Shown here: positions 3,152-58,284 of the stretch, piece by piece
Position numbering within the stretch: the first letter of the stretch is position 1
How the letters are laid out: each line of letters begins with the position of its first letter
DNA from: Candidatus Moraniibacteriota bacterium
Lineage (GTDB): Bacteria; Patescibacteriota; Minisyncoccia; Moranbacterales; GWC2-37-73
DNA length: 64,000 nucleotides
Reading direction: 5' to 3'
Assembly: GCA_013336225.1 (NCBI GenBank)
Contig: JAAXUC010000004.1
Coordinates: 32,421 to 96,420, forward strand
Position numbers and translations under genes: made by a program
The notes under the pieces: generated by a model
The model's input: the letters and a program-made list of their open reading frames with translations, nothing else
What the model was told of the DNA's origin: nothing
Databases searched by the model: none

Positions 3152-3811
3152 ATGTTGAATTATATTTTGCCGCCAATCATAATTGTTATCAGCATTTCAA
3201 TTTTGATAATGTTTCTTTTTCGCAAGGCTGCGCAAATTCCAGCGGGGGAGTTTGCCGTTGATGAGGACAATGGAAGAAATCATGAAAAAAATGCCACCAA
3301 GATGATGTCAGGGCTTGGGCAATTCGGCTTGAAAATCTTGGAAAGATTAATGCATCATTCGAAACTGCTTTCACTCAAATTTCACAATGTGAGCAATGTG
3401 TGGTTTCAGACAATTCGCGAAAAAAGAAAGCAAAGCGCGCAATTGCAAAAGGACAGGCAAGCTCAGCAGGAGGAGCAAGTAGCATTTTCTCGAAAGAGCA
3501 ATCTCAATGTTGATGTGCAAGCCGACAGCCTTGTTTTGCAAGAAAGGCAAACATTGAGGCCAATGGTGCGATCAACCATGACAATGCCGCAAAAGAATAA
3601 TGCCAAAGAAAAGAATCAGTTGGAGGACACTTTGATAAAAAGAATCGCCATCAATCCTAAGGATATTGAAGCTTATGAGCGATTAGGGGATTATTATCTG
3701 GAAAGTGAGAATTTTGGCGATTCATTGGAATGCTTTAAGCAAGTGCTGAAATTGAGCCCAGCTCATCACAAAGCCAGGCTGCGAATTAGAAGACTTGAAA
3801 AATTGAAATAG
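3152..3811 (+). CDS. hypothetical membrane-anchored protein with C-terminal TPR-like helix pair
   Basis: N-terminal TM helix (ILPPIIIVISISILIMFLF), Q/K-rich middle, C-terminal AYERLGDYYLESENFGDSLECFKQVLKLSP TPR-like region. Confidence 0.4.
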   Translation: MLNYILPPIIIVISISILIMFLFRKAAQIPAGEFAVDEDNGRNHEKNATKMMSGLGQFGLKILERLMHHSKLLSLKFHNVSNVWFQTIREKRKQSAQLQKDRQAQQEEQVAFSRKSNLNVDVQADSLVLQERQTLRPMVRSTMTMPQKNNAKEKNQLEDTLIKRIAINPKDIEAYERLGDYYLESENFGDSLECFKQVLKLSPAHHKARLRIRRLEKLK

Positions 3812-4043: not shown

Positions 4044-4126
4044 GGGTAGTTACCAAAGCGGTCAACTGGATCTGGCTGTAAACCAGACGGCGTAAGCCTT
4101 CGGGGGTTCGAGTCCCTCACTGCCCA
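4044..4126 (+). tRNA. tRNA-Tyr (anticodon GUA, long variable arm)
   Basis: Acceptor GGGTAGT/ACTGCCC, anticodon stem TCTGG/CCAGA with loop CTGTAAA, long variable arm CGGCGTAAGCCTTCG, T-arm GGGGG-TTCGAGT-CCCTC. Confidence 0.85.
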
Positions 4127-4139
4127 CATATGATATTTT

Positions 4140-4170
4140 AAAGACACCCTTTTGGGTGTCTTTAAAATTT
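4140..4170 (+). terminator. rho-independent terminator (aaagacaccc-tttt-gggtgtcttt + A/T tail)
   Basis: Perfect 10-bp stem immediately 3' of tRNA-Tyr. Confidence 0.6.
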
Positions 4171-4178
4171 TATTTGTA

Positions 4179-4400
4179 GTGGGCAGTGAGGGACTCGAAC
4201 GGGTCGAAGTGAGCTAGAAATTTTCAGTAGAAAATTCGCAGCGAACGCCGATGAATGAGAGCGTGCGAGCATTCAGCGCGACCCTGGGCAAGGAGCGAAG
4301 GCGACGCGTAAATCCCTCACTCTTTGTGCAGTGAGGAACTCGAACCGGCAGAAGCGAGCATTAAGCAAAGGCGAGATGGGTGCAGGAATATGACTTAAAT
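4179..4400. repeat. tRNA-Tyr-linked repeat: two inverted copies of the tRNA-Tyr 3' end (4179-4200 and 4332-4356) flanking a conserved core (cgatgaatgagagcgtgcgagcattcagcgc...ggcaaggagcg)
   Basis: 4179-4200 gtgggcagtgagggactcgaac is the exact reverse complement of the tRNA-Tyr T-arm/acceptor 3' end; the core is near-identical to cores at 57657-57700 and 57846-57890. Confidence 0.7.
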
Positions 4401-4494
4401 ACGTGATATTTCAGCTATGGACAAAAATCCAATAAAGCCTTATACTGCTTGATAGTTGCTGATTTCAGTATCTAATCCATATCGCTACCAAAAT

Positions 4495-4567: not shown

Positions 4568-4686
4568 CAGGTTTGATAAATTAAAAGATTTTAAAATAAG
4601 TTTCTATTTTCATTGTTTTAAGCCAGAAACAAATGAACATATGAACTAATGACAATTGTATGGCAACAAAGACAAAGGAGAATTTA

Positions 4687-4824
4687 GTGAAACTTAAATG
4701 CAGTGAATGCAAAGAGATCAACTATTACACTTCAAGAAATAAGAAGAAGATCAAAGAAAAGCTTGAGCTCAACAAGTATTGCAAAAAATGTCGCAAGCAC
4801 ACTGAACATAAGGAAATGAAATAA
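4687..4824 (+). CDS. rpmG: 50S ribosomal protein L33
   Basis: Below the 60-aa ORF-track cutoff. [45 protein letters not shown] aligns with B. subtilis L33 (CTECGERNYISKKNK...KKYC). GTG start at 4687 sits 6 nt after AAGGAG; an in-frame ATG at 4660 would add 9 aa. Confidence 0.85.
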
Positions 4825-4832
4825 CCTTTAAA

Positions 4833-5096: not shown

Positions 5097-6455
5097 ATGA
5101 AAAAAATATTGGCAATCGGTTGTGGAGGAGCTGGCATGTTCAGCGGCATTGTTGCAACTCAGCTCAAAAAAGAAAAATTTGAGGCCATTGCACTTTCTGA
5201 GGAAGCTGACATCTATTGTCGTTGCAGCACCCCTTATGTTTTGACGGGGGAAGCCAAGCTGGCAGATGCGATTCAATCTGACAGCATGGCTGGAGATTAT
5301 GGTGTCAAGGTTGTGCATGAAAAAGCCTTGAAAATAAACACTAATAAGAAAGAGGTCTATACCGACAAGGGAAATACTTTCGAGTATGATTATTTGGTTA
5401 TCTCCACTGGTGCAACTCCCGTTAGCCCAAAAATAAAGGGTATAAATCTTGAAAAAATATATACAGTCAGAACCAGCAACGACGTTGAAAAAATCAAAGC
5501 GACACTTGGAAAAGCCAAAAGCGCTCTTGTTATTGGCGCTGGTGTTATTGGAATTGAAATGGCTGGATCTCTTGCCGCCAATGGTTTGGAAGTGGTTTTG
5601 GTTGAAGCAAATTCTTCGATTTCAAATAGTCTTGCTGATTTGGAATTTTCTGAAAAAATCACTAAGCATCTGCAGGCAAATAAAATTGAAGTTCTTTTTA
5701 ATACCAAGGTTTCTGAAATAAAGGAAAATAAAACGAAACAAAAAGAGATTGCTGTGGTGACCAATCGCAAAAAAAGAATCATTACAGCTGATTTGATTGT
5801 TGTGGCGGCAGGCGTGAGGCCTAATTTAGATGTAATTGCTGGCACGAAAATCAAAGCCAATGAAAAGGGAATCATTGTGGATGACAGAATGCGAACTAAT
5901 ATTGCCGATGTCTATGCCTGTGGAGATTGCTGTGTGTCTCCCTCGGCAATTACGGGAGAACTGAGACCTAGTCCATTGGCCAGTACTGCCATTCAGCAAG
6001 CCAAGATTGTTGGATTTCAAATTGCTGGTTTTCCGATAAAATATAACGGCTCAACAGGAGCTTTTGCTTTTCAAACGCTGGGCAAAGAATTTGCAGGTGT
6101 GGGACTCACTGAAACAGAAGCGCGCAAAAAATTCAAATGGGTGATAACTGGAACAGCCATGACCACTGATATTTATAAGGATTTGACGGTGGCAAAAGAT
6201 CTTGAAGTTAAACTCATCTTTGCAGGACCAATGATGAGATTGGTTGGATATCAAGCCTTTGGAAATGGGGTGATTGCTTCGGCTGAGGTTGCAAGTTTTG
6301 CAATTGGGCTGCGTTTGAACATTTTGAAAATGCTGAAATTTAATTATATCGCACATCCCAGTATGACAGCTTGGCCTTTTATGAATCCAATCATCATGGC
6401 CACGGAAGATGCGATGAGCAAGATTATGGAAAAAGTGAAAAGATTTTTCAAGTAA
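5097..6455 (+). CDS. FAD-dependent pyridine nucleotide-disulfide oxidoreductase, NADH oxidase/CoA-disulfide reductase-like (single active-site Cys type)
   Basis: N-terminal FAD Rossmann KILAIGCGGAGMFSG, Cys42-like YCRCSTPYV, second Rossmann ALVIGAGVIGIEMAG, C-terminal FAD motif DVYACGDC. Confidence 0.75.
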   Translation: MKKILAIGCGGAGMFSGIVATQLKKEKFEAIALSEEADIYCRCSTPYVLTGEAKLADAIQSDSMAGDYGVKVVHEKALKINTNKKEVYTDKGNTFEYDYLVISTGATPVSPKIKGINLEKIYTVRTSNDVEKIKATLGKAKSALVIGAGVIGIEMAGSLAANGLEVVLVEANSSISNSLADLEFSEKITKHLQANKIEVLFNTKVSEIKENKTKQKEIAVVTNRKKRIITADLIVVAAGVRPNLDVIAGTKIKANEKGIIVDDRMRTNIADVYACGDCCVSPSAITGELRPSPLASTAIQQAKIVGFQIAGFPIKYNGSTGAFAFQTLGKEFAGVGLTETEARKKFKWVITGTAMTTDIYKDLTVAKDLEVKLIFAGPMMRLVGYQAFGNGVIASAEVASFAIGLRLNILKMLKFNYIAHPSMTAWPFMNPIIMATEDAMSKIMEKVKRFFK

Positions 6456-56851: not shown

Positions 56852-57349
56852 ATGCAATTGGATAAAATCTTCATGAATTTCGGATTGGCGAGTGGCGCCG
56901 CAGAGATGGCAACATTGGCTTTGGTTTTGTTGGTGCTGAGCACTCTTTTTTGGGTTTTGATAGGCAGGTTTCGTTTGCACAATTTTTTGATAAACATCTA
57001 TATTTCACTGGCAATTTTGCAGTTTATTCCTAGTGATATCATGAGTTTTACTAGGAATTCTTCAATTTTATTTTTTCTGATCATTGTCACTTTGTTGACA
57101 CTTTTGAATCCATATTTGTTCGACATTCATCAGTCTGGCTCCGGACTGGCTCTCTGGCAAGTTTTCATGATGAGTTTTCTGGAGGTGTTACTTTTACTTA
57201 GTATCATCATATCTGCTCTTCCAGCTAAAGATGCTGCACTATACATCTCTAAAAACTCCTTGGTTTATTTCACTTATCCTTGGTGGAAATTGGCTTGGAT
57301 AATCGCACCTTTGGCATTCTTGGTGTTTGTTAAGAGACGCGATAAATAG
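56852..57349 (+). CDS. hypothetical polytopic membrane protein
   Basis: Four or five TM helices; no motif recognised. Confidence 0.35.
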   Translation: MQLDKIFMNFGLASGAAEMATLALVLLVLSTLFWVLIGRFRLHNFLINIYISLAILQFIPSDIMSFTRNSSILFFLIIVTLLTLLNPYLFDIHQSGSGLALWQVFMMSFLEVLLLLSIIISALPAKDAALYISKNSLVYFTYPWWKLAWIIAPLAFLVFVKRRDK

Positions 57350-57463
57350 GGGGAAATAGCTATAAAGTTTATAAAGTTTGAAAGTCCATAAAGCGGTCTG
57401 AATATTGTCTTGTTGACTTAATTTTCATTTCAGATATAATTAATATCGTTGACTTAATAATTC

Positions 57464-57536
57464 GGGCACATAGCTCAGTTGGTAGAGCAGCGGCCTTTTA
57501 AGCCGATGGTCGGGGGTTCGAATCCCTCTGTGCCCA
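57464..57536 (+). tRNA. tRNA-Lys (anticodon UUU)
   Basis: Acceptor GGGCACA/TGTGCCC, anticodon loop CTTTTAA, T-arm GGGGG-TTCGAAT-CCCTC. Confidence 0.85.
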
Positions 57537-57549
57537 CATATGATAATTT

Positions 57550-57580
57550 AAAAACACCCTTTGGGGTGTTTTTAAATTTT
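57550..57580 (+). terminator. rho-independent terminator (aaacaccc-tttg-gggtgttttt)
   Basis: Immediately 3' of tRNA-Lys; same architecture as the tRNA-Tyr terminator. Confidence 0.6.
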
Positions 57581-57586
57581 TATTAG

Positions 57587-57970
57587 AGGCACAGAGGGAT
57601 TCGAACGGGCAGAAGCTAAGCAAATTGTTTTTCAGCAGAAAAGCAATGCGGCGTGCGTCGATGAATGCGAGGAATACGAGCATTCAGCGCTGCCCAGGAC
57701 AAGGAGCAAGTGAGCGACGGCGAACGAGCGACGCGTGACAGACTGTGCCCACAAAGAGAAAAATCCCTATTGGGGATTTTTTTGTCTTTGTGCACAGAGG
57801 GATTCGAACCGGCAGGAGTGAGATATGAGCGAAGGCGAATAATCGAACGCCGATGAATGAGAGCGTGCGAGCATTCAGCGCTGCCGCGGGCAACGAGCTG
57901 TCAGCAGACAGTGAGGCGGAAATCCTTTGTCTAAATTGTACACACAGAGGGATTCGAACGGGCAGGAGTT
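57587..57970. repeat. tRNA-Lys-linked repeat array: three inverted copies of the tRNA-Lys 3' end (57589-57612, 57790-57815, 57939-57966) interleaved with the conserved core (cgatgaatg[a/c]gag..cgagcattcagcgctgcc)
   Basis: cacagagggattcgaac is the reverse complement of GGTTCGAATCCCTCTGTG; cores at 57657-57700 and 57846-57890 are near-identical to the core at 4247-4290 in the tRNA-Tyr locus. Confidence 0.7.
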
Positions 57971-57971
57971 T

Positions 57972-58012
57972 AGATAAAAAAAGAAGTCCATTGGATTTAC
58001 CAATAGGACTTC
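57972..58012 (-). terminator. rho-independent terminator for the minus-strand 58039..58284 gene (agaagtcc-attggatttaccaat-aggacttct, T-run on minus strand)
   Basis: A7 at 57972-57978 on the plus strand equals a T-run after the hairpin in the minus-strand sense. Confidence 0.5.
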
Positions 58013-58038: not shown

Positions 58039-58284
58039 TCAGATGAAACCAAATGTTAATTTATCTGAAACGCCAGCCTCTTTTAGCGATCCTTCCATAA
58101 AAATTAAAAGTAGTTCTCTGGGATTTTCAGTTCTGATAATCAATTCAATGTCGCGAAATTGACCGCCAGTTGAATTCATGTTGAAGTCTGATTCTCCTAC
58201 GCCGTTTTTCTTGAGTTCAGCGAGTAGTTCATCAATCTCAATTGGCTCAAGGCTGCCTGTTGCTGTCAATGTGCTTTTTAACAT
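58039..58284 (-). CDS. hypothetical small protein (81 aa)
   Basis: ORF with its own terminator; no motif recognised. Confidence 0.3.
   Translation of the reverse strand: MLKSTLTATGSLEPIEIDELLAELKKNGVGESDFNMNSTGGQFRDIELIIRTENPRELLLIFMEGSLKEAGVSDKLTFGFI

Follow-up and report, generated by a model that had tools for sequence, protein, structure and literature searches.

The window analyzed here, a stretch of 64,000 nt from contig JAAXUC010000004.1 of a Candidatus Moraniibacteriota bacterium (GenBank assembly GCA_013336225.1, positions 32,421 to 96,420), contains an intact tRNA-Lys(UUU) gene that is followed on its 3' side by two complete copies and one truncated copy of a cassette of 150 to 205 bp (Table 1). 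The cassette opens with a terminator hairpin and continues, in this order, with a copy of the tRNA 3' end in inverted orientation, a GC-rich core of ~100 nt, an optional GA-rich hairpin (P4), and a direct copy of the tRNA 3' end. The source of all arms in the Lys array is the T-loop, the 3' strand of the T-stem, and the 3' strand of the acceptor stem of tRNA-Lys (G53 onward). One complete and one degenerate copy of the cassette are located on the 3' side of tRNA-Tyr(GUA), and a covariance model of the core detected no copy beyond the Lys and Tyr loci in the 64-kb window. Considered together with its relatives in other genomes, the Lys locus is very probably a tandem array from an uncatalogued, Patescibacteria-wide family of gene-less cassettes that are attached to tRNA genes.

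Within the Lys array, CACAGAGGGATTCGAAC, the reverse complement of tRNA-Lys positions 53 to 69, occurs exactly at three sites of the plus strand (57590-57606, 57793-57809, and 57943-57959) and once on the minus strand, within the tRNA-Lys gene itself, and 100 shuffles gave no match. The three sites are spaced by 203 and 150 nt, which agrees with a preliminary description of the locus, where three inverted copies of the tRNA-Lys 3' end at distances of ~200 and ~150 nt had been reported with coordinates that were off by just 1 to 4 nt. A direct copy of the tRNA terminus beside a small hairpin, also noted there, proved to be the 3' arm of unit 1 (CTGTGCCCACA), which pairs over 7 bp with GGCACAG of the 5' arm (helix P1) and is followed by terminator hairpin Z2. 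The claim that the inverted copies are separated by a conserved core that recurs at tRNA-Tyr was likewise correct; the chance expectation for this core is 0.12 occurrences. That account did not include the covarying hexamers of helix P2, the truncation of the third Lys copy, which stops directly after the first P2 hexamer, or the fact that the tRNA-Lys 3' end, terminator Z1, and the inverted arm together form one long quasi-palindrome. At tRNA-Tyr, the inverted arm CAGTGAGGGACTCGAAC is found exactly at 4184-4200 and with one mismatch at 4329-4345.

Table 1. Features of the two cassette arrays and their surroundings (positions in the window; bits for cores are covariance-model scores; L-numbers denote loci returned by the genome scan)
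Feature	Positions	Strand	Description
tRNA-Lys(UUU)	57464-57537	+	Intact; ARAGORN and Rfam, 75.6 bits
Terminator hairpin Z1 and T-tract	57545-57588	+	Center of the quasi-palindrome from tRNA G53 to the end of the unit 1 5' arm
Lys unit 1, 5' arm	57588-57606	+	Perfect 19-nt reverse complement of tRNA-Lys G53-C71, ending ...TCGAAC
Lys unit 1, core	57607-57695	+	Three-way junction with covariation, 83.5 bits; P2, 57607-57612 with 57690-57695; P2a, 57613-57658; P3, 57659-57689; conserved core, 57659-57695
Lys unit 1, P4	57696-57742	+	GA-rich, rod-like hairpin; 2-bp steps split by tandem G.A loops
Lys unit 1, 3' arm	57743-57753	+	Direct copy of the tRNA-Lys 3' end
Bidirectional terminator hairpin Z2	57757-57783	.	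Orthologous to the terminator after tRNA-Lys in L003 and L055
Lys unit 2, 5' arm	57790-57809	+	GTGCACAGAGGGATTCGAAC
Lys unit 2, core	57810-57886	+	P2, CGGCAG/CTGCCG; P3, 57851-57880; 81.6 bits; conserved core, 57851-57886
Lys unit 2, P4 and decayed 3' arm	57887-57931	+	P4, CTGTC agca GACAG; arm GAAATCC.. at 57919-57931
Lys unit 3, truncated	57942-57968	+	5' arm and 5' strand of P2 alone (GGGCAG, 57960-57965)
Terminator of convergent 81-aa ORF	58006-57988	-	Starts ~20 nt beyond Lys unit 3
81-aa ORF	58039-58284	-	Between truncated Lys unit 3 and the BNR-repeat gene; own terminator
tRNA-Tyr(GUA)	4044-4127	+	Second host tRNA; ARAGORN and Rfam, 51.4 bits
Terminator hairpin after tRNA-Tyr	4135-4168	+	Similar to Z1 of the Lys locus
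Tyr unit 1	4179-4321	+	79.7 bits; 5' arm, 4179-4200 (perfect 22-nt inverted copy); core, 4201-4284; P2, GGGTCG/CGACCC; conserved core, 4249-4284; P4; 3' arm, 4310-4321 (AAATCCCTCACT)
Tyr unit 2, degenerate	4328-4425	+	5' strand of P2, CGGCAG; decayed core; 15.2 bits, E = 0.11
rpmG	4650-4825		Ribosomal protein L33; between tRNA-Thr(GGU) and tRNA-Trp

Along the tRNA strand, a unit runs from the 5' arm (..TCGAAC) through P2, P2a, P3, the 3' strand of P2, and P4 to the 3' arm. The core is a three-way junction in which P2 encloses P2a, a variable hairpin on a CGAG/CGAG base, and P3 (CGATGAATGCGA..GAGCATTCAGCG), both with tandem sheared G.A pairs, a motif that recurs in P4; the arms pair with each other over 5 to 14 bp (P1) and close the core. 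The GC content of the cassette amounts to ~56%, compared with 38% for the genome, i.e., ~18 percentage points more. The P2 hexamers already covary inside the window (Lys unit 1, GGGCAG/CTGCCC; Lys unit 2, CGGCAG/CTGCCG; Tyr, GGGTCG/CGACCC). Across genomes, the covariance model of the core recovered 58 copies from 46 sources, with arrays of two to four. In the alignment derived from this model, whose structure was corrected by hand, standard pairs occupy 95.5% of the cells and 13 of the 19 pairs show changes on both sides. None of 500 shuffles attained any of five covariation measures, controls with slid partners paired at 20 to 55%, and in P2 alone five of the six positions covary, with GC, CG, AU, UA, and GU variants. 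The core thus has the conserved secondary structure with compensatory substitutions that marks a structured single-stranded element.

Five non-Watson-Crick positions are nearly invariant, namely, one A.G in P3 and a tandem G.A/A.G in each of P3 and P2a; the conserved G.A/A.G positions, at four sites, are kept in 54 to 57 of the 58 copies. The plus strand gives the more stable fold in 37 of 42 cores. Since the opposite strand would carry C.U mismatches, the sheared G.A pairs are limited to the purine (tRNA) strand, and together with the better folding of the plus strand, they indicate that the functional form is a single strand of tRNA polarity. The natural reading is that this strand is probably RNA; folded single-stranded DNA is less likely as the acting form.

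The conserved fold has consequences for the idea that the arrays are inert fossils, i.e., att-site duplications left by deleted integrase islands or prophages around a core that is a meaningless remnant. Inserts made by tRNA-targeting integrases are classically recognized by direct repeats of a tRNA 3' end at their borders, decayed derivatives without genes in which attL and attR are retained are known as cis-mobilizable elements (CIMEs) (PMC5704250), and cargo islands in two loci (L006 and L039) end at a cassette. However, remnant sequence would not keep a fold, and strong compensatory covariation, together with non-Watson-Crick positions that stay invariant in different classes of Patescibacteria, largely refutes this explanation, which we regard as very unlikely. 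The GC surplus of the core relative to the genome, its strict strand relation to the tRNA, and the lack of an integrase in any of ~49 loci also speak against it.

An evenly spaced, repeated 23-mer, tRNA-like sequence, and short open reading frames (ORFs) across the core might suggest a CRISPR-like array, a cluster of pseudogenes of transfer-messenger RNA (tmRNA) or tRNA, or a small protein-coding repeat, but these readings are refuted and retain practically no probability. CRISPR had already been dismissed in the preliminary description, and rightly so: the units of 150 to 205 bp have a conserved, structured interior and a period of 150 to 203 nt instead of 21- to 48-nt repeats with unique spacers, and the sole Rfam match to a CRISPR-DR (E = 8.8) lies on a terminator. 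ARAGORN found five tRNAs and no tmRNA in the window, Rfam added none even at E <= 10, and the copies lack the 5' strand of the T-stem. A tmRNA or two-piece tmRNA, suggested by the similarity of GGATTCGAAC to a tmRNA 5' region and by a reading of the core that ends ..AFSAA, was also rejected on these negative searches and on the nonconserved frame; GGATTCGAAC is not tmRNA because it varies from tRNA to tRNA in the way expected of a reverse complement. Finally, the preliminary description was right that the ORFs starting with MNESVRAFSAA are not genes here, since the P3 loop of Lys unit 1 comprises 10 nt but that of Lys unit 2 and of the Tyr unit 9 nt, and this difference of 1 nt breaks the frame between copies.

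Relatives of the cassette were obtained by scanning the genomes of 185,579 species with the P3 pattern. Eleven of the 60 loci returned were chance matches inside unrelated genes, and the remainder share the whole architecture. The preliminary description had allowed for a fossil duplication confined to the two loci of the window; the core is present in ~47 loci beyond it, beside tRNA genes for Glu, Lys, Tyr, Pro, Gln, Gly, and Ser, and essentially all of these loci belong to Patescibacteria (Moranbacteria, Buchananbacteria, Kerfeldbacteria, Falkowbacteria, Paceibacterota, and unclassified Patescibacteria). A metagenome scan with a pattern specific for a short form of the element (see below) yielded five loci, of which four were already in the genome-scan set. 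No cassette match was obtained in the window even at E <= 10 with the 4227 models of Rfam 15, where the tRNAs alone exceeded the gathering score, and in 18 related loci Rfam matched tRNA, tmRNA, and LOOT RNA alone, never the cassette. IMG/VR and collections of phages and plasmids contained no match to it, and no description of it was found in the literature; the nearest paper concerns group I introns in the anticodon loops of Patescibacteria tRNAs, which are a different thing (PMC13011429). It can be stated with high confidence that structured, tRNA-linked cassettes with a folded single strand of tRNA polarity as the active form constitute a new and widespread family.

Several metagenome-assembled genomes that bear the cassette are labeled "uncultured Gammaproteobacteria" or "Bdellovibrionales" (L040, L047, L054 [CAYIRS01], L007, L018, L028, L031, L048, and others). 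These labels are probably wrong, because the best protein matches of L054 are from Falkowbacteria and other Patescibacteria. The LOOT RNA (59 bits, L009 164-298) and the tmRNA (114 bits, L005 4186-4577) detected in the related loci are both unrelated to the cassette.

The linkage to tRNA genes is strictly oriented. All 29 tRNA-adjacent copies of the long form are located 3' of a same-strand tRNA (Glu, 12 copies; Pro, Tyr, and Lys, four each; Gln, three; and Gly and Ser), with the 5' arm 40 to 80 nt beyond the gene and no case on the opposite strand; co-orientation with the tRNA holds for 29 of 29 copies downstream and for 4 of 4 upstream. The inverted arm is a perfect complement over 9 to 22 nt; among the 29 copies listed, its start lies exactly 22 nt from the tRNA 3' end (G53) in 24 and deviates from this position by no more than 2 nt in three others. 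The direct arm starts at ~A58 in most copies, is identical to the tRNA over 11 to 55 nt, and ends at the tRNA end or, in four loci, reaches up to 55 nt by extending through trailer and terminator. Such a direct repeat, combined with a tRNA gene that is left intact, is what characterizes a tRNA-targeting element. Comparison of the left half of the interval between G53 and P2 with the reverse complement of its right half revealed one long quasi-palindrome centered on the terminator loop, in which decayed inverted copies of the acceptor strand are recognizable past the conserved 10 to 13 nt of the inverted arm. The inverted arm therefore originated by a fold-back that copied the complete tRNA 3' end, of which the core-proximal part alone is maintained.

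The fixed junctions could also result from mobility driven by the RNA itself, in which case the core would be a small ribozyme or guide scaffold of a protein-less element that makes its own target-derived arms. The invariant ..TCGAAC beside P2 would pair with the universal T-loop GTTCGA, and attachment to the tRNA or the tRNA gene (positions ~53-58; ~57/58) by a reverse-splicing-like or RNA-guided step would be followed by a return to DNA. Compatible with this proposal are the constancy of the junctions at G53 and ~A58 across seven tRNA species, the complementarity of the segment adjoining P2 to the most conserved tRNA sequence, and a core that is conserved like catalytic or scaffold RNA and encodes no protein. 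In addition, hairpin P1' of the short form (GTYG..CRAC) holds the same place and covaries, and the direct repeat often reaches the terminator end, i.e., the natural 3' end of the pre-tRNA (L003, L010, and L024). Nevertheless, we judge such a mechanism to be improbable: similarity to the known ribozyme and intron models of Rfam is lacking, no reverse transcriptase was seen near any copy, and no group II introns were present in Patescibacteria among 95 complete genomes surveyed (PMC13011429). Moreover, the sense orientation of the core is hard to fit with simple cDNA models; each of the cDNA and template-switch models considered needs ad hoc steps to yield the order of tRNA, terminator, inverted arm, sense core, and direct arm, and a fold-back of the DNA at the terminator accounts better for the inverted arm.

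Several comparisons speak for movement of the cassette. Judged by sequence identity, the core subfamilies do not follow the identity of the tRNA. Cores are 93% identical between L003 (Lys) and L010 (Tyr), 96% between the Tyr unit of the window and L008 (Gln), and 88% between L031 (Glu) and L045 (Tyr), compared with 68% between the two Lys units of the window, which belong to different subfamilies. Arrays of mixed subfamilies are found in L043, L055, and the window and therefore grew by separate insertions and not by tandem duplication. Copy number varies between relatives, a sign of mobility according to the preliminary description: the syntenic tRNA-Lys loci have one unit in L003, at least two in L055 (in an inverted block), and 2.5 in the window. 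In the arrays of the window, the copy nearest each tRNA has remained intact and those farther out have decayed or been truncated, which fits entry beside the tRNA and subsequent outward aging. Cargo is present between the tRNA and the terminator, arm, and core in L006 (3 kb of ORFan genes, whose ORFs have no Pfam or PHROG match) and in L039 (0.85 kb, one gene); in L015, the L006b core is located directly behind tRNA-Pro, without the island. As a separate observation, the block of tRNA-Lys and cassettes in L055 (7049-8000) is inverted, relative to the window (56852-57800), with respect to a conserved gene for a 165-aa membrane protein.

The same comparisons reveal strong constraint. Unit 1, which is common to the window, L003, and L055, shows no substitution over ~86 nt outside the P2a and P4 hairpins, and the changes within these hairpins include six compensatory pairs (two in P2a and four in P4 [L055]), while the adjacent 165-aa gene has 71% DNA identity and 48% identity at third codon positions. 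In two pairs of loci, L016/L019 and L006/L015, the tRNA plus cassette block is the sole detectable nucleotide similarity. This conservation reflects either purifying selection on resident copies, which would point to a host function, or recent transfer of elements selected for their own activity.

A host function is at the center of the alternative that the cassettes represent a family of noncoding RNAs embedded in tRNA transcription units, whose apparent mobility results from duplication and recombination among tRNA loci. P1 might imitate the minihelix of acceptor and T-stem, with RNase P, RNase Z, and the CCA-adding enzyme excising and trimming the RNA, or the RNA might pair with the 3' half of its particular tRNA as a tRNA-specific regulator or decoy. 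The conservation of unit 1 amid diverged surroundings and the isolated similarity of the block in the two locus pairs are in line with this, and tandem G.A motifs and a three-way junction are typical of RNAs that bind proteins or form tertiary contacts. In L038 and L057, P1 corresponds to the full helix of acceptor and T-stem (13 to 14 bp), followed by the discriminator base. Furthermore, the cassette of L045 presumably lies inside a tRNA operon transcript, because the next tRNA starts 2 nt after the 3' arm. On the other hand, even very compact genomes retain truncated and degenerate copies, arrays at one tRNA comprise up to three or four diverged copies, and the short form sits in protein-coding genes and decayed pseudo-tRNAs. 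P1 comprises just 5 to 7 bp in many copies, so minihelix mimicry is not general, and most cassettes are preceded by a strong terminator and have no evident promoter of their own. On balance, a host RNA family is the main rival explanation but is distinctly less probable than a mobile cassette.

The short form of the element comprises 75 nt and lacks P4 and the tRNA arms. It opens with a small covarying hairpin (GTCGC..GCGAC, GTTCAG..CTGAAC, etc.) right after a G-run and ends with ..CTGCCC AGGAAC; its termini are CCTCCCCC/GGAGGGGG plus the duplicated G-run. Copies are embedded in partial, decayed duplicates of a tRNA that lie just upstream of the intact gene (L005, Asp; L052, Gly), in the D-loop of decayed tRNA copies (L034, Asn; L044), and in intergenic clusters with CCTCCCC..GGGGAGG hairpins (L037, L040, L047, and L056). 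Two glycosyltransferase genes carry it in frame, in two different reading frames (L017 and L054), which corresponds to the behavior of in-frame repeats such as the Rickettsia palindromic elements (RPEs); this applies to the short form in genomes other than that of the window, where no copy inside a gene was seen. According to alignments with PDB structures, the L054 insert occupies an interdomain linker of 50 residues versus 16 in the reference, and the L054 glycosyltransferase has 42 aa where a homologue with 80% (BLASTP) or 88% (alignment) identity has 16 aa. The length difference is therefore a direct presence/absence polymorphism of the short form. An insertion of the short form within rRNA or another RNA gene was rejected, as the loci concerned gave no Rfam match.

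Two observations accompany the short form. A second repeat, the hairpin CCTCCCC-N7-GGGGAGG, forms intergenic clusters (L056, ~5200-5560; L047, ~210-300) and is translated as ..PPLIKGR.. in an in-frame insert of the L054 glycosyltransferase homologues P0003 and P0005; because it too sits in frame, these genomes carry RPE-like palindromic repeats that are independent of the cassette core. Locus L005 (5930-6315) contains three tandem copies of the tRNA-Asp 5' region, the third being the intact gene. Both decayed copies have a 31-nt insert in the D-loop that ends with ..GAGACGGGCAG, a truncated cassette start, and one of them also holds a full short-form core.

In our view, there is about an even chance that the element is a gene-less mobile cassette with a folded single strand, probably RNA, that is needed for its spread or function. 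Such a cassette would enter just behind a tRNA gene and leave the tRNA undamaged, its arms being derived from the target as an inverted duplication centered on the terminator hairpin and a direct duplication starting in the T-loop. Newer cassettes would enter beside the tRNA and push older ones outward, where these decay, and the Lys array with its intact unit 1, the decayed arm of unit 2, and the truncated unit 3 would be the result. Selection would maintain the conserved fold, which most probably acts as an RNA, presumably transcribed as part of the tRNA transcription unit, for spread or maintenance, and the enzyme that performs the putative insertion reaction would presumably be supplied in trans. 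The proposal in the preliminary description that an active tRNA-associated mechanism or element is at work is supported by the loci beyond the window and the variation in copy number, though it was unspecific and named neither the element nor its folded single-strand core.

Several findings weigh against mobility of this kind. No recombinase, transposase, or reverse transcriptase was found in or next to any cassette; among the ORFs within 3 kb of the modules in ~49 loci there was no recombinase, and this is also true for the neighbors of the cassettes in the window (PEGA, BNR, RRF, and PSP1 proteins). The analysis recovered neither an excised form nor a tRNA with an exact empty site. Core subfamily and the terminator that separates tRNA and cassette do not covary, so a simple circle with its own terminator misfits some loci. 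With respect to transcription, the sole strong consensus promoter near the Lys cassettes is that of tRNA-Lys, which is cut off from unit 1 by a terminator, and another terminator follows unit 1. The counts of G.U versus A.C in the helices are too few to fix the strand alone. Finally, the conservation and compensation in unit 1 are at least as compatible with an RNA under host selection as with a selfish element, and perhaps more so.

The cassette shares features with several known systems. Like elements that target tRNA and tmRNA genes, CIMEs (PMC5704250), and the ssrA islands of Dehalococcoides (PMC3146451), it is inserted 3' of a tRNA gene that stays intact, has a border formed by a directly repeated tRNA 3' part starting in the T-loop, can be stacked in tandem at one tRNA, and may have variable cargo between the tRNA and the distal repeat (L006 and L039). 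Unlike these, the family lacks an integrase at any locus examined, measures just 150 to 205 bp, and contains an extra inverted tRNA copy; its interior is a conserved, covarying three-way junction and not arbitrary remnant DNA, and the repeat length varies from 11 to 55 nt. RPEs are repeats of 100 to 150 bp in intergenic and coding DNA (PMC1779305). With them, with miniature transposable elements bounded by inverted repeats (MITEs), and with repetitive extragenic palindromic (REP) sequences and bacterial interspersed mosaic elements (BIMEs), the cassette has in common that it is a small, structured, gene-less repeat with lineage-specific proliferation and, as the short form, occurs in frame in genes. 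It differs in having a multihelix junction with G.A pairs that are invariant on one strand instead of a simple palindrome, a strong oriented preference for tRNA genes, and arms copied from the target. Neither a transposase partner or partner insertion sequence nor canonical terminal inverted repeats with a short target site duplication, as in MITEs, were found; the arms are mutually inverted over 5 to 14 bp but are target derived and variable in length.

The ends of a unit pair in imitation of the acceptor/T helix of a specific tRNA around a large structured domain and in a tRNA transcription context, which recalls tmRNA, viral tRNA-like structures, and mascRNA-type signals. In contrast to these, the insertion emerges at a T-loop position and not between acceptor and T arms, there is no T-arm hairpin, tag ORF, or requirement for an encoded CCA, the 5' strand is an exact inverted copy and not the 5' half of a tRNA, and ARAGORN and Rfam do not recognize the cassette. 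Single-stranded hairpins serve as recombination substrates in integrons, where attC sites may also form clusters lacking an integron integrase (CALINs), and in the CTX phage, whose attP hairpin is used by XerCD. By analogy, the cassette would resemble such sites in its folded single strand, in the conservation of structure on one strand, and in its arrays, sometimes with ORFan cassettes, and a duplex version of the target site would be restored by the inverted and direct arms. In contrast to attC, the core is conserved in sequence, and junctions rich in G.A are found more typically in RNA; neither an integron integrase nor a Xer site was identified for the cassette.

Further candidates were rejected. 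A group I intron gave no Intron_gpI match, and the cassette (~100 to 170 nt) is located outside an intact tRNA and joined at T-loop positions. Bridge or seek RNA of IS110-type elements, omega-RNA of IscB/TnpB, and retron noncoding RNA were discarded, as no recombinase, nuclease, or reverse transcriptase gene is adjacent at any locus and no HEARO or retron match was obtained in Rfam. A tRNA-like RNA on the minus strand (acceptor stem plus T-loop) would lack the T-stem 5' strand, and the G.A motifs and better folding are on the plus strand. Resemblances to box C/D or k-turn motifs, hammerheads, CsrA-binding GGA, and a Shine-Dalgarno sequence with a small ORF were noticed by eye; none of them agrees with the consensus or is preserved from copy to copy. 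That the inverted copy is an illusion and represents a tRNA minihelix with deleted D and anticodon domains (5' strands of acceptor and T-stem) was also rejected, as the arm reads GAGGG-A-TTCGAA-C where the tRNA has GGGGG-TTCGAAT, the Tyr arm ACTCGAA is the complement of TTCGAGT, and the palindrome runs on through the trailer.

Patescibacteria have tiny genomes with little spare DNA, yet they harbor several GC-rich, folded cassettes of 100 to 200 nt per genome that are tied to single-copy, essential tRNA genes. If mobile, the cassettes would show that gene-less DNA can target tRNA genes in a new manner, with no integrase of its own, and would mark hotspots where ORFan genes enter these genomes. 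If they are host RNAs, a phylum that holds a large share of bacterial diversity would have a specific class of RNA that is abundant and unannotated and whose pairing follows an unusual, tRNA-specific logic. Either way, a covariance model and defined junctions at G53 and A58 make the family a concrete, testable object.

The search for an associated protein by all-against-all clustering of ORFs within 3 kb returned housekeeping neighbors and, in six loci, a small gene for a GIY-YIG nuclease of ~90 aa (PF01541, E = 6e-18). It is located 6 to 270 nt upstream of the cassette-bearing tRNA on the same strand (L001 1924-2169, L006 3979-4257, L021 1885-2139, L026 547-807, L033 1673-1912, and L056 2988-3263), is not present in the window, and could be a free-standing homing-type nuclease linked to tRNA loci. 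Small extra hairpins inside P2 or the P3 loop of some cassettes, e.g., TCACGTCGTTCGCGAACGACATGA or CCTGCC-CACC-GGCAGG (L027 ~3230-3260, L030 ~6090-6115, L049 ~180-215, L023 375-497, and L028 7231-7342), are nested insertions of an even smaller palindromic element.

The genes around the Lys cassettes in the window are ordinary (PEGA-domain protein, membrane protein, BNR protein, frr, and rseP). The 81-aa ORF has no Pfam match and is missing from the syntenic locus L003; the region behind tRNA-Lys is a small variable hotspot. By eye, the trailers and terminators of tRNA-Lys and tRNA-Tyr (57545-57588 and 4135-4178) look closely alike (tatgata[a/t]tttaaa[a/g]acaccctttt.gggtgt..; identity not computed), the terminators of the three other tRNAs of the window are unrelated to them, and the cores adjoining the two look-alike terminators belong to different subfamilies with 72% identity. 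The cluster at the Tyr locus has the order Thr-Tyr-[cassettes]-Thr-rpmG-Trp, and the slot held by the cassettes is the position of tRNA-Gly in many bacteria.

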